A DNA stretch of 32,000 bases from Promethearchaeia archaeon (GTDB lineage: Archaea > Asgardarchaeota > Lokiarchaeia > Sigyniarchaeales > SOKP01), in the NCBI GenBank assembly GCA_046497275.1, contig JAWOFX010000029.1, positions 12,792-44,791 on the forward strand, written 5' to 3'. This document shows positions 1 through 10,491 of the stretch, in pieces. Position numbers and translations under genes: made by a program. The notes under the pieces were generated by a model, which was not told the DNA's origin, ran no database searches, and worked only from the letters and a program-made list of their open reading frames with translations. The stretch's first letter is position 1. Every line of letters starts with the position of its first letter.

Positions 1-643
1 GCATAATTACTCTTCCTGGTCCGGTTAATTGAGCAACTAAGCCTTCACCAGAGAGAACCGTTGATTTTAGACCACCAACCTTTTTAATATCAAAAGACAC
101 ACTAGATTCCATAGATACTAGATGACCATTATCGCAATTGAAAATCTGTCCATCTGCTAACGTGATTTCATGGAAAGCGCCCATTGCACCAATAAATAAA
201 TCTCCAGGTCCATTTAAAGCTTGAACATTTAAGAAAAAGGCTCTCTCACCACCAAAAAAAGAACGTTTTAATCCTAAAAAGTTTGTCTCGGTTTCAAAAT
301 GTATTGAACTTGCGACAAAGCAACCACTAAACAGAACCCAACTTTCATTCTTCTCTAATGGGATTTGCATTAAATCTCCAGGAAAAGCAGGGGCTAATCC
401 TACATAACCATCGTCATGAGCTTCAAAAGTGTTCATAAAAAAGGTCTCCCCAGCAAGAGCTCTTTTTAAAGATTTTAAAAATCCAGAAGAGGCTTTTTTT
501 GTTGAAATTTCTAATGTAGGATCAAAATAAATCATTGTACCTCCTTCGCATTGTATTTTTTGTCCTTTTCTTAAGTGCACCCTCAAATAAGAAAAAGTGG
601 GTCGTTCTAAAACTTCAAAATCATACTCTATTCCTTTTGGCAT
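1..643 (-). CDS. AIM24/TIGR00266 family protein, 3' end runs off the window
   Basis: Manual translation from ATG at 643 (GGAG upstream): MPKGIEYDFEVLERPTFSYLRVHLRKGQKIQCEGGTMIYFD...LKRALAGETFFMNTF...LAPAFPGDL...FGGERAFF...DNGHLVSMES...SGEGLVAQLTGPGRVIM. No stop before position 1, so it is absent from the ORF track. Confidence 0.88.
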   Translation of the reverse strand, partial: MPKGIEYDFEVLERPTFSYLRVHLRKGQKIQCEGGTMIYFDPTLEISTKKASSGFLKSLKRALAGETFFMNTFEAHDDGYVGLAPAFPGDLMQIPLEKNESWVLFSGCFVASSIHFETETNFLGLKRSFFGGERAFFLNVQALNGPGDLFIGAMGAFHEITLADGQIFNCDNGHLVSMESSVSFDIKKVGGLKSTVLSGEGLVAQLTGPGRVIM

Positions 644-767
644 TTTTTTTAATCTCCATAATTTGTTGTGAATTAATGATAGATTGTATCATTATTAACT
701 TTTTCCTATATATTTTTCATAAAATAAAAAGAATAGAAATAAGAATTACAAAAAAAATTAGATGTAA

Positions 768-899
768 TTAAGAAAGTAGTTTTAATTTCTTTTTTTTACT
801 CAAAAGATAAATAAGTATGAAGCTTGTAATAAAAACTCCGAAGAGTATATAAAGATCATAACCTGGAATCGTGATTCCATCTCCTCCGACAAATCCCAT
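768..899 (-). CDS. 43-aa micro-protein made only of a Loki-CTERM-like sorting signal
   Basis: MGFVGGDGITIPGYDLYILFGVFITSFILIYLLSKKKKLKLLS*. GAGGTG Shine-Dalgarno at 916-911. In-frame TAA at 926-924 prevents upstream extension. Same IPGY-TM-basic layout as the tail of 4078..5934. Confidence 0.75.
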   Translation of the reverse strand: MGFVGGDGITIPGYDLYILFGVFITSFILIYLLSKKKKLKLLS

Positions 900-1087
900 T
901 ATTTTATTTTCACCTCTTACTTTTTATTAAAATGAATAAGATTTGAAAAGAATAGATGCATTTATCATATTTAAGTATTTTAGTTGCATAGAGAAATTGG
1001 GATTTTTTGAAATGTGAGAAATGTTTTTATAAATTAAGTAAACTTTCGATTCGTATTTAATTTAAAAAATCAGGTTCGATTCTTGGC

Positions 1088-1870
1088 TTAATCTTCAATT
1101 TTTTTATCTCTCCAAGCCAATAAATCTGTAGAATCTGACACGTTAAATATTTTAAGATAAGCTTCTTCTAAATTGTTAGTATTATTTAAATTTATTATGT
1201 CTTCTATAGTTCCTTCCAATTTCAATGAACCTTCCTTTATTATACCTATTCTATCACATAAATCTTCTGCAATATCTAATAAATGAGTACATATAAAAAC
1301 AGTTTTATTAGCTTTTTTTGATAAATTTTTAATAAGATCTCTAACCATTTTTGCCGCAACAGGATCTAAATTGGAGGTGGGCTCATCTAGAAAGATTATA
1401 TCTGGATCATGAAATAATGCTGCGCATAAACATAATCTCTGTTTCATTCCTCGGGAATATTCTTCAATAAGATCATCTTTTCGTTTTTCCAATTTAAAAA
1501 GATTGAGTAATTCTTCCGTTCTGCTTCTAATCAATTCTTTTTGCATATAATATAATTCCCCCACAAATTCTAAATATTCTACAGCATTTAGTTTTTGATA
1601 AAGAGCGGGTGATTCTGGTAAATATCCTGAATTCTTCTTAACATCAGAAGATTGTTTTAGTAAGTCAAATCCAAGAACTTTTCCACTCCCAGATGTAGGT
1701 TTAATTATGCAATTCAATATTCTAACCGTTGTTGTTTTTCCCGCACCATTTGGACCTATTAAACCATATGTTTCTCCATACTTGATTTTTAAATTCAAAT
1801 TCTTAACTGCGGTGAGTTCTCCATAATTTTTTTTTAAATTATCAGTGTATATTGCGAATTTTTCTTTCAT
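1088..1870 (-). CDS. ABC-2 type exporter ATP-binding subunit
   Basis: Walker A GPNGAGKT, signature YSRGMKQR, Walker B IIFLDEPT, H-loop CTH. Confidence 0.95.
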   Translation of the reverse strand: MKEKFAIYTDNLKKNYGELTAVKNLNLKIKYGETYGLIGPNGAGKTTTVRILNCIIKPTSGSGKVLGFDLLKQSSDVKKNSGYLPESPALYQKLNAVEYLEFVGELYYMQKELIRSRTEELLNLFKLEKRKDDLIEEYSRGMKQRLCLCAALFHDPDIIFLDEPTSNLDPVAAKMVRDLIKNLSKKANKTVFICTHLLDIAEDLCDRIGIIKEGSLKLEGTIEDIINLNNTNNLEEAYLKIFNVSDSTDLLAWRDKKIED

Positions 1871-4077: not shown

Positions 4078-5934
4078 TTAGTGTTTATAAAGTATTATCT
4101 TTTTCCTTCTTAATATATAAATAAGCCCAATAATGCTCGTGGTTGAGAATGCAATGAGAACGATTGGTTCATATCCTGGAATTTCTCCTCCTGGTTGAGA
4201 TATCGAGATTACTGTCGCAGAACCATATTTCACGCTAGCGAAACGAAGAACGCCGTTACTATCCCAATCCATATCAATATTAATGTTTGGCATCGGGTCT
4301 GGCATATCCATTTGCATAGATTTAAATGTTATTTGTGTTTTGTCATAGGTACTCCCAAGAAACATTAACAAATTACCAACTGCCGGATAAACCAAGGCTT
4401 CCATAGGATCTGAAAAGGCAACTTCGAGGTCAGCTGGATCAAAAATCCATATACCATCTTCAGGAAAAGGAAAATCCTCGGTAATATCATAATATTCTCC
4501 AGTACCAAAATCAGCATGTATTGTATAATTAAGTTGGGTAGCATTTAATCCGCTTACAACTTCGGCCTCATTTAATATTTCAGTTATATTCAATCGAAGT
4601 TTAATTCCTGTCGTAAGCATTGCGAGTTCTTCTACTTCACTAAAAAGCATATCAAAGCTCAGCATTGAATACTCCCATAACTCATCAATTAACTCATTTA
4701 TGGATAGTTCATACCACGGAACTCCGAAATATTTAATAGAGAAATTATAAAAACCGCCATCATCGGATTGATTAATTGCGTATAATAACTCGAGAGAAGC
4801 ATTATTTAGAATCTCACCTGCAGTAATATCGGGTGCAAATGGAAAATTCTCCATATAGAGAGATTGATTGATACCCATTTTCATGAATTCTATACAATAT
4901 GATATATTCATACTCAAAATGTCAAATCCCGGATCCTCAATAGTTTCGTTAATATTGGTTAATGTTTCATTAATTAACTCTGAAATAGTGAGGACGTCCC
5001 AATCTTCGGGGATAATTGCTGCGTTAATGTCATAATTGATTCCCATCATAGTAAGATTTAACAGATCAGACATGCTACAAGTAACAAGATCTAAGGGGAA
5101 ACCATCAGCACCAGCAGTTTCATTAAGTATATAAATTGATTCATTTAATAATTCCTCCATATCCCAAGTTAAAAGGAAATCTGCCACTTCATCTCCATCA
5201 GAAGTAAAATTAACTATATACAGAATGAAATCAATGAAATTACTGTCAAGTCCAGGAATTATGCCCTCCATAAAGCCGGACATAGTTAGATCTTCCCAAT
5301 CATCGGGGATTTCAAATGTGCCACCAGTGAAATATGTCAAAAGATCATTCATAAAATTATTTAATTGCCACATTAGAAGTTCCTTAAATGTTAAGCTTTC
5401 CCATCCATCAGGTAAAGCTCTTTCTACTGGTGTTTCAGCAGCGATATCCTCAATAATTGTGTCAATTATATCAAAAAGAGTATCTTCAGTAGCACCTTGT
5501 GCTTCAATTATTTGATCAGCAAAAGCAGTTAAATTCATAGATTTCCAATTCGTTAATCCCAAATCATATTCAGTATTTACAAATTCTACCAAGGTTTCAA
5601 TTGTTCCTTCAAAGAGTTCGGTTAAATTGAGGGATTCCCAATTAGGAGGTAAGATATCAGAGAAAATATCAATGCTTATTTGTTTAAAGAACTCAGTGAA
5701 ATTTAAATCTCCATATTCATTCAATTCTTCTTTAAAGTCATCTTTAACACCTTCCAAATCGTCCATAATTTTATCTATAGTGCTGTTACTCAAAACAATA
5801 TTCCATTCATAAACGTCTCCTTCAGAAACACCCACATAACTTGGAATGGTTTGAGCAGTAGAATATCCTTGTAAAGATATCGTAGAAAACATAAGGCTTA
5901 TTATTATTAATGTTAATAATAGTTTTTTCTTCAT
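4078..5934 (-). CDS. Secreted acidic surface (glyco)protein with internal repeats and a Loki-CTERM-like C-terminal anchor
   Basis: Signal peptide MKKKLLLTLIIISLMFSTISLQG; 'YVGVSEGDVYEW' N-terminal motif; many NxS/T sequons; C-terminus GEIPGYEPIVLIAFSTTSIIGLIYILRRKK. ATG at 5934 preferred over TTG at 5940. Confidence 0.85.
   Translation of the reverse strand: MKKKLLLTLIIISLMFSTISLQGYSTAQTIPSYVGVSEGDVYEWNIVLSNSTIDKIMDDLEGVKDDFKEELNEYGDLNFTEFFKQISIDIFSDILPPNWESLNLTELFEGTIETLVEFVNTEYDLGLTNWKSMNLTAFADQIIEAQGATEDTLFDIIDTIIEDIAAETPVERALPDGWESLTFKELLMWQLNNFMNDLLTYFTGGTFEIPDDWEDLTMSGFMEGIIPGLDSNFIDFILYIVNFTSDGDEVADFLLTWDMEELLNESIYILNETAGADGFPLDLVTCSMSDLLNLTMMGINYDINAAIIPEDWDVLTISELINETLTNINETIEDPGFDILSMNISYCIEFMKMGINQSLYMENFPFAPDITAGEILNNASLELLYAINQSDDGGFYNFSIKYFGVPWYELSINELIDELWEYSMLSFDMLFSEVEELAMLTTGIKLRLNITEILNEAEVVSGLNATQLNYTIHADFGTGEYYDITEDFPFPEDGIWIFDPADLEVAFSDPMEALVYPAVGNLLMFLGSTYDKTQITFKSMQMDMPDPMPNINIDMDWDSNGVLRFASVKYGSATVISISQPGGEIPGYEPIVLIAFSTTSIIGLIYILRRKKIILYKH
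4680..5660 (-). repeat. Degenerate intragenic peptide repeats, consensus about P-x-x-W-x-x-[LM]-[TNS]-x-x-[ED]-[LF]
   Basis: PPNWESLNLTELF, TNWKSMNLTAF, PDGWESLTFKELL, PDDWEDLTMSGFM, PEDWDVLTISELI, VPWYELSINELI, plus weaker copies. Boundaries are approximate. Confidence 0.7.
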
Positions 5935-6064
5935 TTTCAATCAATAAGATTTTTTATAAAATACATTAAACCCTTGTAAAAAAATAATTCAATCCATTAT
6001 TTAAATATATTTCAATTTGGTATGGATGAAAGTTTTTAATTTTTTGTGAGTTTTATAGAGTATC

Positions 6065-7079: not shown

Positions 7080-7889
7080 TTGAAAATGTCAGATAATATA
7101 ATAATAAAAGTACGGAACTTAAAGAAATACTTCGAAAACGTGAAGGCAGTAGATGGTATCTCTTTTAATGTTAGTGAAGGGGAGGTTTTTGGATTATTAG
7201 GACCGAACGGTGCAGGAAAAACTACCACGATTAAATTACTTCTGGGTTTGCTTGAACCCAATGATGGCGAAATGGAGATATTCGGGTTAGATCCGCAACG
7301 TAATGATGTTCAAATAAAGGCAAATACGGGTTATGTCAGTGAAGAACCTTTGATATTTAAATCCTTAACACCGAAAGATATCTTCAATTTTATTGCCTCA
7401 ATCCGTGAACTTGATGAAACAAAAGTCCAAGAACGAGCTAAAGAATACTTAGAAAGTTTGGATGCTCTTGAATTCTATGATCAAATGGTTGCTACATTAT
7501 CTCATGGGAACAAACAAAAAATCCAGATTATTTCGTCAATTTTGCATGATCCTAATTTGTTAATTTTAGATGAACCATTAGCAGGACTTGATGCGAAATC
7601 AGTAAAAGTGATGAAGGAAATACTTGATATACATACTGAAAATGGAGGAGCAGTCCTATTTTCAACTCATATTATGGAGATTGCTCAAGATATTTGTGAT
7701 AGAATAGCGATTATAAATAAAGGGAAACTAGTTGGAATTGGAACCATAGAGGAATTACGAAAACAATCAGATAAATTAGGGGCGAGTTTGGAGGATGTTT
7801 TCTTACGTCTAACGGAACAAGATACATCAGTTAATGACATTGTGAAAAAATTAAGAGAATCTTTCAAGAAAAAGAAGGAGTTGATGTGA
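7080..7889 (+). CDS. ABC-2 type exporter ATP-binding subunit
   Basis: GPNGAGKT, LSHGNKQK signature, LLILDEPLAGLD, STH. The start may be the ATG at 7086. Confidence 0.95.
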   Translation: MKMSDNIIIKVRNLKKYFENVKAVDGISFNVSEGEVFGLLGPNGAGKTTTIKLLLGLLEPNDGEMEIFGLDPQRNDVQIKANTGYVSEEPLIFKSLTPKDIFNFIASIRELDETKVQERAKEYLESLDALEFYDQMVATLSHGNKQKIQIISSILHDPNLLILDEPLAGLDAKSVKVMKEILDIHTENGGAVLFSTHIMEIAQDICDRIAIINKGKLVGIGTIEELRKQSDKLGASLEDVFLRLTEQDTSVNDIVKKLRESFKKKKELM

Positions 7890-7893
7890 TCTT

Positions 7894-10491
7894 TTGGATG
7901 AAAATCTTCTTGATTTATATTCACAGACAAAATATATAACCAGAGAAGTTTTTATAGAATCTCAACTACAATCTGCTGGCTCAAACCAAGCGCGATTGCT
8001 TGAAAAGATGGAAAAAAATAAGAATTATATGCGCAATAACGTAATTGCTTTAAAGATTGTTTATGCTTTTGTTTTATCTTTTATGCCTATAATTCCTCTA
8101 ATCTCATATTTTCAAGTAAGAGAATTATTAGGAAGTGCTCCAATTGAAGCAATTATATTTACACAAAGTATCATTTTCTCAATATTCTTCGGATTAAATT
8201 TTGCGTATCTAATTCTATTCGGAATGTTAAATACAAGTTCATTTATGTCAGGAGAATCGTTCGAATGGCTACATACACTTCCGATATCTGAGAAAAAGAT
8301 GAAGAAATTAGGTTTTTTAACTATTTTTAGAAGCTTAGACCTTCCTCTTATTGTAATGATGGTATCTTTTCCTATCATTATCGTAATCGGAACTCGGGAT
8401 GTTTTATTAATGATAATTACAGCTATAGTATCTGTACCTAATGTTATTTTGAGTTTTAGTGTTTTAATATTTATCGGAGAGAAACTTAGTCGAATTCTTT
8501 ATGGAGAACAAAAAACCACTAAAAAAACAACTATTCTTAGAATGGTGACAATGATTAGTTATATACTGATGGCAATGAGTTTAGGTTTTATCATAAATTT
8601 ATCTGTTCAAGCTGTTGATTTTTTATTTAATATTTTTATAGTTTCGGAAGATATGTTAATCCTCAGCATCATTTTCACTTTAATCCCTTACCCATTCGCT
8701 CCTAGTTTTTTAATATCTAATTTTTCTGCACCCTTACAAATCTCACCTATTATTTGGACTACAACTATTATTGGTTTTATTCTTTTCGTATTATTAACGT
8801 GGATAATATATCATAAAGCAGTAAATTCACTTAAAGCAGTCACTGCATTCGAGAAAAAAGAGGAAAAAATTGAACAGCCGATAGAAAGAAAAACTGAAGT
8901 GATCCAAGTTGAAATAACAACACGAACCCCTATTATGGCATATCTTCGAAAAGATCTCACAACCGCTACAAGAGATTTTCAAACTTTTATGTTTTTATTA
9001 ATGCCTATAATTTTTCCACTTATTTTAGTTCTTTCTGGCTCAGCGGCAATAAGTTTTACGAATCCTATTCAAGATGTAATAATTATTTGGGTTTTGATAC
9101 TAGCAAGTTTGGCTTATATTCCAGCGATTTTAGTTTCAGGATTGCTTAATATGGAAGAAACAGGAGCTACTATTTTATCCTCTTTGCCTATTATCCCTAG
9201 AGATCAAGCAAAAGCAAAACTCTTATTAATGTTATCAATTCAAACTGCTTCGTTTTTAATTGCACCATTAATACTTTCCATTGTTTTTGGAGTATGGACT
9301 ATCTTTTTATTAATTGGTGCTTCCATTCCTCTCGGATGGACTTTTATGATTCTATTTTTTGAGCTTAAGATCAGGTTATTTGGACAGATGCGATATAAAT
9401 ATGTAATTGAAGAAATAAATAGGGAAAAAAAAGTTTTAAAATGGGCTGTTATGCTTATCGTAGAATTAGGTTTATTTGTTTTAGTTTTAATTATTGTTTT
9501 AAATATCGCGTTCTTAATAACCGATATTATTCTAATTTCAAGTGTTGTTCTTATAATGGGTTTAATCGGTACATTAACCACTTGGTATTCATTCAATCGT
9601 TTGTTTCCAAAACCTAAAGAAATGGGAGATTATGCAACTGGGGGTGCTCTAAGAGAAACTCCAATCATTGGAGGTGTAGTTTTAACACTGACATATTTTG
9701 GATTCCAAATCTTACCAGGCTTCTTAGAAGCGCTTCTCATACTTCTATTATTCCCTTTTTTATCATATCTGGGTTTAGTATTAATAGATTTCATTTTCAT
9801 ATTTGGTTTCTTAGCCCTCTTATTTCTATATGTAGTTCCTTTTGGATTTAAACTTCCTTTCAAGGATCGTAATTTTAGTGAATATCTTCAAGATGTCGGG
9901 TTGGGTAAGAAGCAACCGATATTTAAAAATATTTTAATTGGAGTCTGCGCTTTTATATTCTTTGTACTAATAGTAGTACCCGGTGGAGTAATTTTAGGAG
10001 ATTTTACATTTGATCTTGATATTTTATTTGGAAACCCCAATCTATCTAATCTTGGGTGGTTTTTATTCATTATTATGCTAATCCCAGGGATATGGGAAGA
10101 GTTTTCCTTTAGAGGAGTGATTATGCCAAACTTGAAAAGAAAATATTCGGATGTTTCAGTGATATTAATAAGTGGAATCATTTTCGGTCTTGCTCATTCA
10201 ATCAACTTTTTAAATATCCTTGCCGGACTAAATCCATTATATGTTGGTTTTCAAATATTCTATGCGTCGTTATTGGGTTTCAGTTTTGGATATATGTTTT
10301 TAAAAACTGGCAGTCTAATTCCTAGCATCACTTTTCATTATCTTGTGGATTCTGTTGGTCAGCTATTTTTAAATGTTTACTTTAGTAATTGGTTAACGAC
10401 ATCAATATACTTGATTGTATTTATAGGAATTCTACCAACGCTTATAACTATCCTATTCGTTAGATATATCACCAAATCAAACGAGAGATAA
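7894..10491 (+). CDS. ABC exporter permease fused to a C-terminal CPBP (Abi/Rce1-like, type II CAAX) intramembrane protease
   Basis: N-terminal ~570 aa is a two-repeat permease (WLHTLPIS, YLRKDL..ATRD, LSSLPIIPRDQAKAK). C-terminal domain has EEFSFRG, FGLAH and KTGSL...HYLVD, the CPBP motifs. Starts 4 nt after the ATPase stop. Confidence 0.85.
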   Translation: MDENLLDLYSQTKYITREVFIESQLQSAGSNQARLLEKMEKNKNYMRNNVIALKIVYAFVLSFMPIIPLISYFQVRELLGSAPIEAIIFTQSIIFSIFFGLNFAYLILFGMLNTSSFMSGESFEWLHTLPISEKKMKKLGFLTIFRSLDLPLIVMMVSFPIIIVIGTRDVLLMIITAIVSVPNVILSFSVLIFIGEKLSRILYGEQKTTKKTTILRMVTMISYILMAMSLGFIINLSVQAVDFLFNIFIVSEDMLILSIIFTLIPYPFAPSFLISNFSAPLQISPIIWTTTIIGFILFVLLTWIIYHKAVNSLKAVTAFEKKEEKIEQPIERKTEVIQVEITTRTPIMAYLRKDLTTATRDFQTFMFLLMPIIFPLILVLSGSAAISFTNPIQDVIIIWVLILASLAYIPAILVSGLLNMEETGATILSSLPIIPRDQAKAKLLLMLSIQTASFLIAPLILSIVFGVWTIFLLIGASIPLGWTFMILFFELKIRLFGQMRYKYVIEEINREKKVLKWAVMLIVELGLFVLVLIIVLNIAFLITDIILISSVVLIMGLIGTLTTWYSFNRLFPKPKEMGDYATGGALRETPIIGGVVLTLTYFGFQILPGFLEALLILLLFPFLSYLGLVLIDFIFIFGFLALLFLYVVPFGFKLPFKDRNFSEYLQDVGLGKKQPIFKNILIGVCAFIFFVLIVVPGGVILGDFTFDLDILFGNPNLSNLGWFLFIIMLIPGIWEEFSFRGVIMPNLKRKYSDVSVILISGIIFGLAHSINFLNILAGLNPLYVGFQIFYASLLGFSFGYMFLKTGSLIPSITFHYLVDSVGQLFLNVYFSNWLTTSIYLIVFIGILPTLITILFVRYITKSNER

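Follow-up and report, generated by a model that had tools for sequence, protein, structure and literature searches.

A cargo-less Loki-CTERM sorting tail encoded on its own in Lokiarchaeia: evidence for a selected microprotein, probably tied to archaeosortase H

C-terminal sorting tails such as LPXTG, PEP-CTERM, PGF-CTERM and Loki-CTERM are treated as disposable address labels. What, then, is to be made of a locus whose whole product appears to be such a tail? Here we analyze the window, a stretch of 32,000 nucleotides from a genome of Lokiarchaeia type (G000; 3.85 Mb, 30% G+C, 98.9% complete), in which a first-pass annotation had pointed out a 43-amino-acid open reading frame with a GAGGTG ribosome-binding site and an in-frame stop upstream. 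All three are present on the minus strand (Table 1), and the upstream TAA makes a longer reading impossible. The composition given for the product was equally accurate. A glycine-rich lead (residues 1-10) precedes the signature IPGYD (11-15), which is followed by some 19 hydrophobic residues (~16-34) and the basic end KKKKLK; the protein stops nine residues past the helix, which places signature, transmembrane segment and basic cluster at the extreme C-terminus. An identical 43-residue protein (P0001) has already been called and is listed in the public protein collection.

Table 1. Features at and around the micro-gene, in positions of the window
Feature	Position	Strand	Remarks
43-codon micro-gene	768..899	minus	ATG 897-899, TAA stop 768-770; lead, IPGYD, transmembrane segment, Lys cluster
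Shine-Dalgarno-type GAGGTG	911..916	minus	11 nt 5' of ATG; kept as AGGAGGTGA in L030
In-frame TAA upstream of the micro-gene	924..926	minus	limits the open frame to 51 codons at most
21-nt block, 100% identical in L030	959..979	minus	TATA-like TTAAATAT 67 nt before ATG; candidate own promoter
T8 run	750..757	minus	10 nt past the stop codon; candidate archaeal oligo-T terminator
Promoter-like block ahead of AIM24	690-725	minus	near-identical in L030
AIM24/TIGR00266 family protein, downstream neighbor	2..643	minus	runs off the window
ABC-2/DrrA-type ABC ATPase, upstream neighbor	1088..1870	minus	188-nt spacer to the micro-gene
620-aa secreted protein	4078..5940	minus	signal peptide and IPGYE-TM-RRKK tail; normal full-length substrate form (context)

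The surroundings of the frame can be compared with L030, a JGI metagenome contig (Ga0209918_1012856) that is about 90% identical to the window, and with the congener G004. A T-run follows the stop codon in both, as T7 at the same place in L030. From this run and the block at 959-979, conserved inside a spacer of only 74.6% identity, we infer that the micro-gene has a promoter and a terminator of its own. Its Shine-Dalgarno site also stands out in this genome: SD-like motifs precede only about 8% of the long reading frames (strong 6-mers 1.9%), against 1.1% in control windows. The GAGGTG is thus not background, and most genes of the genome seem to use another mode of initiation. A search of the region for known RNA families returned only a snoRNA match of 20 bits, well under the gathering score of 40, and a tRNA search found no tRNA, so that neither explains the region.

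The tail had been described as an IPGY-type sorting signal of motif, transmembrane helix and basic cluster, and this assignment can now be tied to a curated family. Scored with the Loki-CTERM model NF033507 (cut-off 19.9 bits), the 43-residue protein reaches 29 bits with E 8.7e-07, and a six-frame search of the entire genome places it first among nine above-cut-off matches (E 1.4e-5). The same model is passed by the L030 variant (27.3 bits), by a third variant available at protein level (P0002, 28.5 bits) and by a copy at the corresponding position in G004 (21.6 bits). No Pfam family was matched by the micro-ORF protein and the PGF-CTERM models gave no match at E<=1; NF033507 alone matched.

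With the full-length Loki-CTERM substrates of its genus, which would be processed by archaeosortase H (ArtH), the product shares an above-cut-off tail of signature, helix and basic end as well as the GG-x-IPGY[DE] linker and signature. It differs from them in what is missing. Whereas these substrates have a signal peptide and cargo, the micro-ORF has neither, as had been noted at first reading, and the tail is the whole protein: the ten residues before the signature contain no n- or h-region and no signal peptide is found. Of the genome's complete Loki-CTERM proteins, all eight have a signal peptide; of its three tail-only minis, none does. The likeness to the 620-aa protein encoded in the same window, which the original observation pointed out, is real, down to the order of signature, helix and basic residues, and that protein does have a signal peptide. 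Its own tail gave no match to NF033507 at E<=10, and the proline directly after the signature (IPGYE-P) may weaken the match; the tails of 624-626-aa proteins in the relatives G002, G004 and G011 match either the micro-ORF or NF033507.

Whether the frame is a gene at all can be judged from its divergence. L030 keeps the order ABC ATPase, 43-codon frame (preceded by AGGAGGTGA) and AIM24, with the frame intact. Identity between the window and this contig is 90.6% in the ABC gene, 74.6% in the spacer before the micro-ORF, 84.8% in the micro-ORF and 81.1% in the spacer behind it. Third codon positions account for 16 of the 20 base differences within the micro-ORF; synonymous changes number 15 and non-synonymous ones five (binomial P = 1.1e-6 for the synonymous excess). 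The dN/dS ratio, which the first-pass annotation had proposed as a check, is 0.06 for the micro-ORF and 0.12 for the ABC ATPase of the same pair, an estimate that comes from one DNA pair and 20 differences; the other five frames of the region contain stops and give ratios from 0.17 to 15. In P0002 the inner 43 residues are 86% identical, and the changes, F/L, I/L, G/S, K/R and K/N only, are conservative. Start codon, length and stop are conserved across the variants, and the SD site is conserved in L030. The three variants do not differ at residues 10-19, which hold the signature, or in the helix core (22-34); their seven variable sites fall in the lead, at the helix start and in the basic end, a pattern recognized post hoc from just these seven sites. 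As the 43-codon form is already present in both DNA lineages, it was the mini form itself that was under selection while the substitutions accumulated. The substitution pattern thus indicates that the micro-ORF is a genuine small gene, conserved in close relatives, whose 43-residue product is kept by purifying selection.

Such a pattern bears directly on another possibility raised at the outset, a remnant of a rearranged surface gene. In its strict form it holds that a surface-protein gene decayed or was rearranged, and that the micro-ORF is its orphaned, non-functional 3' end, with an ATG by chance. Similar fragments do exist, as described below, and the micro-gene is missing or start-less in two congeners (G002 and G004). 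Yet the low dN/dS and the third-position bias accrued after the 43-codon form existed in both lineages, and ATG, SD site, length and stop are conserved. There is also no cargo-domain residue left in the product and no upstream room for a larger gene, as the spacer is followed by a complete ABC ATPase. A mini-intron or exon reading was rejected for the same reason, that is, the complete ABC gene and the 188-nt spacer. The closest matches to the 43-residue protein in 40 related genomes are tails of long proteins with at most 58% identity, and no long orthologue was found in them; a search of proteins above 76 residues for a matching tail likewise returned nothing, which carries little weight. 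Because of the purifying selection and the lack of a long orthologue among these genomes, a mere remnant is disfavored as the present state, and we regard it as improbable.

As a statement about origin, the remnant idea fares better. Two more tail-only frames above the NF033507 cut-off are found in the same genome, both devoid of a signal peptide. One, with 50 residues (28.4 bits; L048:1600-1752, G000:C25:31299-31451, minus), aligns over residues 3-49 to the ends of proteins of about 245-300 residues in the congeners G003 and G001, and is therefore the truncated end of a surface-protein gene. The other, with 69 residues (26.5 bits; L049:1555-1764, G000:C3:2754-2963, minus), carries an acidic lead of 43 residues, and no close relative was found for it among six congeners. 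A 47-residue mini in the relative G008 is again the end of longer proteins, and the short Loki-CTERM frames of other relatives mostly lack a start codon or lie at contig ends. Since two other tail-only frames in the lineage are truncated ends, an origin of the micro-ORF as an orphaned surface-protein tail turned into a gene is likely. So orphaned tails arise repeatedly in this lineage, and the micro-ORF is the one case with evidence of selection. Recent duplication was rejected: the tails of long proteins are only about 50% identical, and blastn of the frame and its flanking sequence across the genome returned nothing beyond short chance matches, with no recent DNA duplicate. Searches for mobile-element borders around the micro-ORF found only chance AT-rich repeats.

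How widespread is the micro-gene? In the congener G002 the ABC ATPase and AIM24 genes lie 108 nt apart with no micro-ORF between them, and the AIM24 tree is compatible with both histories for this genome, loss of the element or its absence from the start. G004 has a diverged copy 188 nt before AIM24 (L012:1192-1318, G004:C266), with a GGGG linker, IPGFD, a helix and RRKR over 40 open codons. No ABC gene stands beside it, and a start codon in its frame is lacking; directly ahead of an A8 run there is an ATG, but in a different frame, and a change of one nucleotide in the length of this run would give a 42-codon reading frame. Either the assembly is wrong at this homopolymer or the copy has decayed recently. 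Tail identity between G000 and G004 is 47%, a low value that is apparently below that of the tails of the 620-aa-type proteins. The micro-gene is thus young and dispensable and has a narrow distribution.

The first-pass annotation had also suggested looking for cargo-less tails in other Asgard genomes, and here the expectation of a wider family was not borne out. A profile built from 27 tails and run against proteins of 19-77 residues gave 11 matches, all in singleton or two-member clusters and several of them truncated ends, so that no broad conserved family of cargo-less tail microproteins across Lokiarchaeia emerged from this short-protein search. Nor is the annotation class itself new, since at least one tail-only frame, of 29 residues (P0009), already carries the Loki-CTERM family name from NCBI's pipeline. 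We found no reported evidence of selection for tail-only Loki-CTERM frames; what is new is the evidence of selection maintaining a cargo-less tail. A different kind of cargo-less substrate was seen in another family of the order: P0008 (L034 ~574-744, minus, G031:C57) has 56 residues, and its signal peptide runs almost straight into a Loki-CTERM tail (GG-IPGYP), leaving essentially no mature part.

The gene neighborhood offers two further explanations. Many bacterial small proteins tune transporters, and the micro-ORF product could be an ArtH-independent membrane protein, a single-pass helix that modulates a membrane partner such as the adjacent ABC system or AIM24 and is never cleaved. Synteny, suggested earlier as a check, gives a divided answer. 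The order of ABC ATPase, micro-ORF and AIM24 is kept in L030, and the G004 copy still lies beside AIM24; linkage to the ABC gene is not constant, as the G004 copy shows. The helix core, invariant despite four synonymous changes, suggests sequence-specific packing. On the other hand, the IPGYD signature and GG linker, needless for a plain anchor, are kept in all variants, and even the diverged G004 copy retains a signature-type motif and passes NF033507. Both putative partners persist in G002 without the micro-ORF, and no small transmembrane frame precedes AIM24 in the 14 other relatives with a scannable upstream region, so that a general link between AIM24 and an upstream small transmembrane frame was not found. 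The micro-gene moreover seems to own a promoter-like block and T-run. A promoter-like block also lies ahead of AIM24. The core of this second block, ATATATAG...AAAGTTAA, with CTCACAA further downstream, is common to the congeners G002 and G004, and in G002 it comes almost directly after the ABC stop. We consider an ArtH-independent helix possible, though on the unlikely side.

Far less plausible is that the product is a signal-peptide-less hydrophobic peptide exported or otherwise handled by the adjacent ABC-2-type transporter, as cargo or as an immunity-type partner. The idea draws on the position of the micro-ORF directly 3' of a DrrA/ABC-2-type ATPase, among whose NCBIfam matches are ATPases for lantibiotic protection and PSM export. 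These matches all lie far below the respective cut-offs and reflect generic ATPase similarity. A 552-aa membrane protein gave no match in Pfam or NCBIfam, and no permease partner could be identified by family. In addition, G002 has the transporter without the micro-ORF, while the G004 copy has no adjacent ABC gene. We therefore regard handling by this transporter as very improbable. Elsewhere in the window (7080-10491, plus strand), the gene behind an ABC ATPase encodes an 865-aa protein in which a 12TM_1-type membrane domain is fused to a CPBP/Rce1-like intramembrane protease (PF02517, 72 bits); this fusion stays far below the cut-offs of the ABC_perm_CPBP and myxosortase models; no relation between the 552-aa and 865-aa membrane proteins was detectable.

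If the tail is read as a sorting signal, the genome should hold an enzyme that recognizes it. The archaeosortase H model NF041736 matches G000 at 326-329 bits (cut-off 200; C172:64687-65292). The corresponding protein has 368 residues (L047:1474-2580, minus), lies on another contig than the micro-ORF, and carries the N-terminal domain NF041739 and an exo/archaeosortase signature. ArtH is above cut-off in 39 of 41 relatives, among them 16 of 16 high-quality genomes, and Loki-CTERM matches occur in all 41. The Pfam family Exosortase_EpsH (PF09721) has no match in G000 at E<=1 and none above cut-off in about 40 relatives. A reading of the lineage as free of archaeosortases, taken from PF09721, proved wrong, since its weak matches led to NF041736; as this family misses the enzyme of G000, Pfam-only annotation would report a lineage without archaeosortase. 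The permease-CPBP fusion was dropped as a candidate sorting enzyme in favor of ArtH, the stronger candidate, since its myxosortase-type matches fall far short of the cut-offs. We found no paper on Loki-CTERM, so the pairing of tail and enzyme rests on the curated models and on co-occurrence, from which we infer that ArtH is the cognate enzyme of Loki-CTERM tails. To our knowledge archaeosortase H, a cell-surface enzyme of Asgard archaea, has never been studied experimentally.

Combining these observations, the product of the micro-gene is a small membrane protein that is probably tied to a protein-anchoring enzyme. A specific version of this reading, which we see as about evenly balanced between right and wrong, is that a surface-protein tail has turned into an N-out/C-in microprotein that engages ArtH as a minimal substrate or as a competitor. 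At the 3' end of a surface-protein gene, a start codon, a ribosome-binding site and a promoter would have been acquired or retained, and this step may be placed in an ancestor shared by a few species within a single Lokiarchaeia genus. The helix would then insert in the same orientation as the tail of a secreted substrate. An N-out/C-in orientation is predicted by the positive-inside rule because the protein has no signal peptide, a short acidic N-flank (two Asp) and five Lys in its C-flank; by this charge bias, N-out insertion should be feasible without a signal peptide. IPGYD would come to lie at the outer membrane face, where ArtH is expected to meet its substrates. In one option the product would be an ArtH substrate of the least possible size, cleaved so that a peptide of some 10-13 residues remains, which might be lipid-linked if ArtH acts like ArtA. 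In the other it would act as a competitor, or occupant, of the tail-binding site of ArtH. With signature and helix core invariant, the tail itself rather than the tiny 'cargo' is favored as the functional part.

One step beyond this lies the idea of a sorting signal turned into a free-standing regulatory microprotein, which would occupy or titrate ArtH, or whose helix would signal as sortase C-peptides do, and in this way tune surface anchoring. We judge this regulatory role doubtful. If true, the free tail would be without precedent as a cargo-less sortase-type signal that has its own function.

Known systems provide partial precedents for these steps. All ArtA substrates that we know of are Sec or Tat cargo proteins. 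PGF-CTERM tails and ArtA follow the same tripartite logic with a similar P-G-aromatic signature and serve as a model for what ArtH would do, although they represent a different archaeosortase subfamily, as the enzyme of G000 is an ArtH and its micro-ORF has no PGF-CTERM match. For this system, it has been shown experimentally in Haloferax volcanii that archaeosortase A cleaves the tripartite PGF-CTERM tail, and that cleavage is coupled to lipid attachment (PMC6098224). In streptococci, the leftover sortase tail or 'C-peptide' is reported to act as a membrane signal on a partner protein (cited in PMC11502775). The C-peptide resembles the role proposed for the micro-ORF in being a transmembrane tail with its own function in the membrane; it differs in being a by-product of a full adhesin, bacterial, and released by an unrelated enzyme, whereas the micro-ORF tail is encoded alone.

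For the insertion route, the Pf3 coat protein offers an analogy. It enters the membrane through YidC as a single N-out/C-in span with no signal peptide, its short acidic N-tail crossing the bilayer. The micro-ORF product resembles it in size (~44 residues), in the acidic N-tail, in the one helix and in the basic C-terminus; the analogy concerns insertion only, and the two proteins are not homologous.

A tail that is encoded alone and stands under purifying selection suggests that an address label can gain a function of its own. As a natural substrate or probe for archaeosortase H, the micro-ORF product would be as small as possible, and, its origin being deduced from the truncated ends described above, the micro-gene would be a clean case, and a dated one, of a larger gene's end giving rise to a microprotein. 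The narrow distribution, the dispensability of the gene and a function predicted from sequence set limits to this significance. Weaker ArtH-like paralogues (98-102 bits) were also observed in two relatives (G026:C92, G026:C59 and G030:C19), each 2-4 kb from Loki-CTERM reading frames, and these may be dedicated sortase-substrate pairs.
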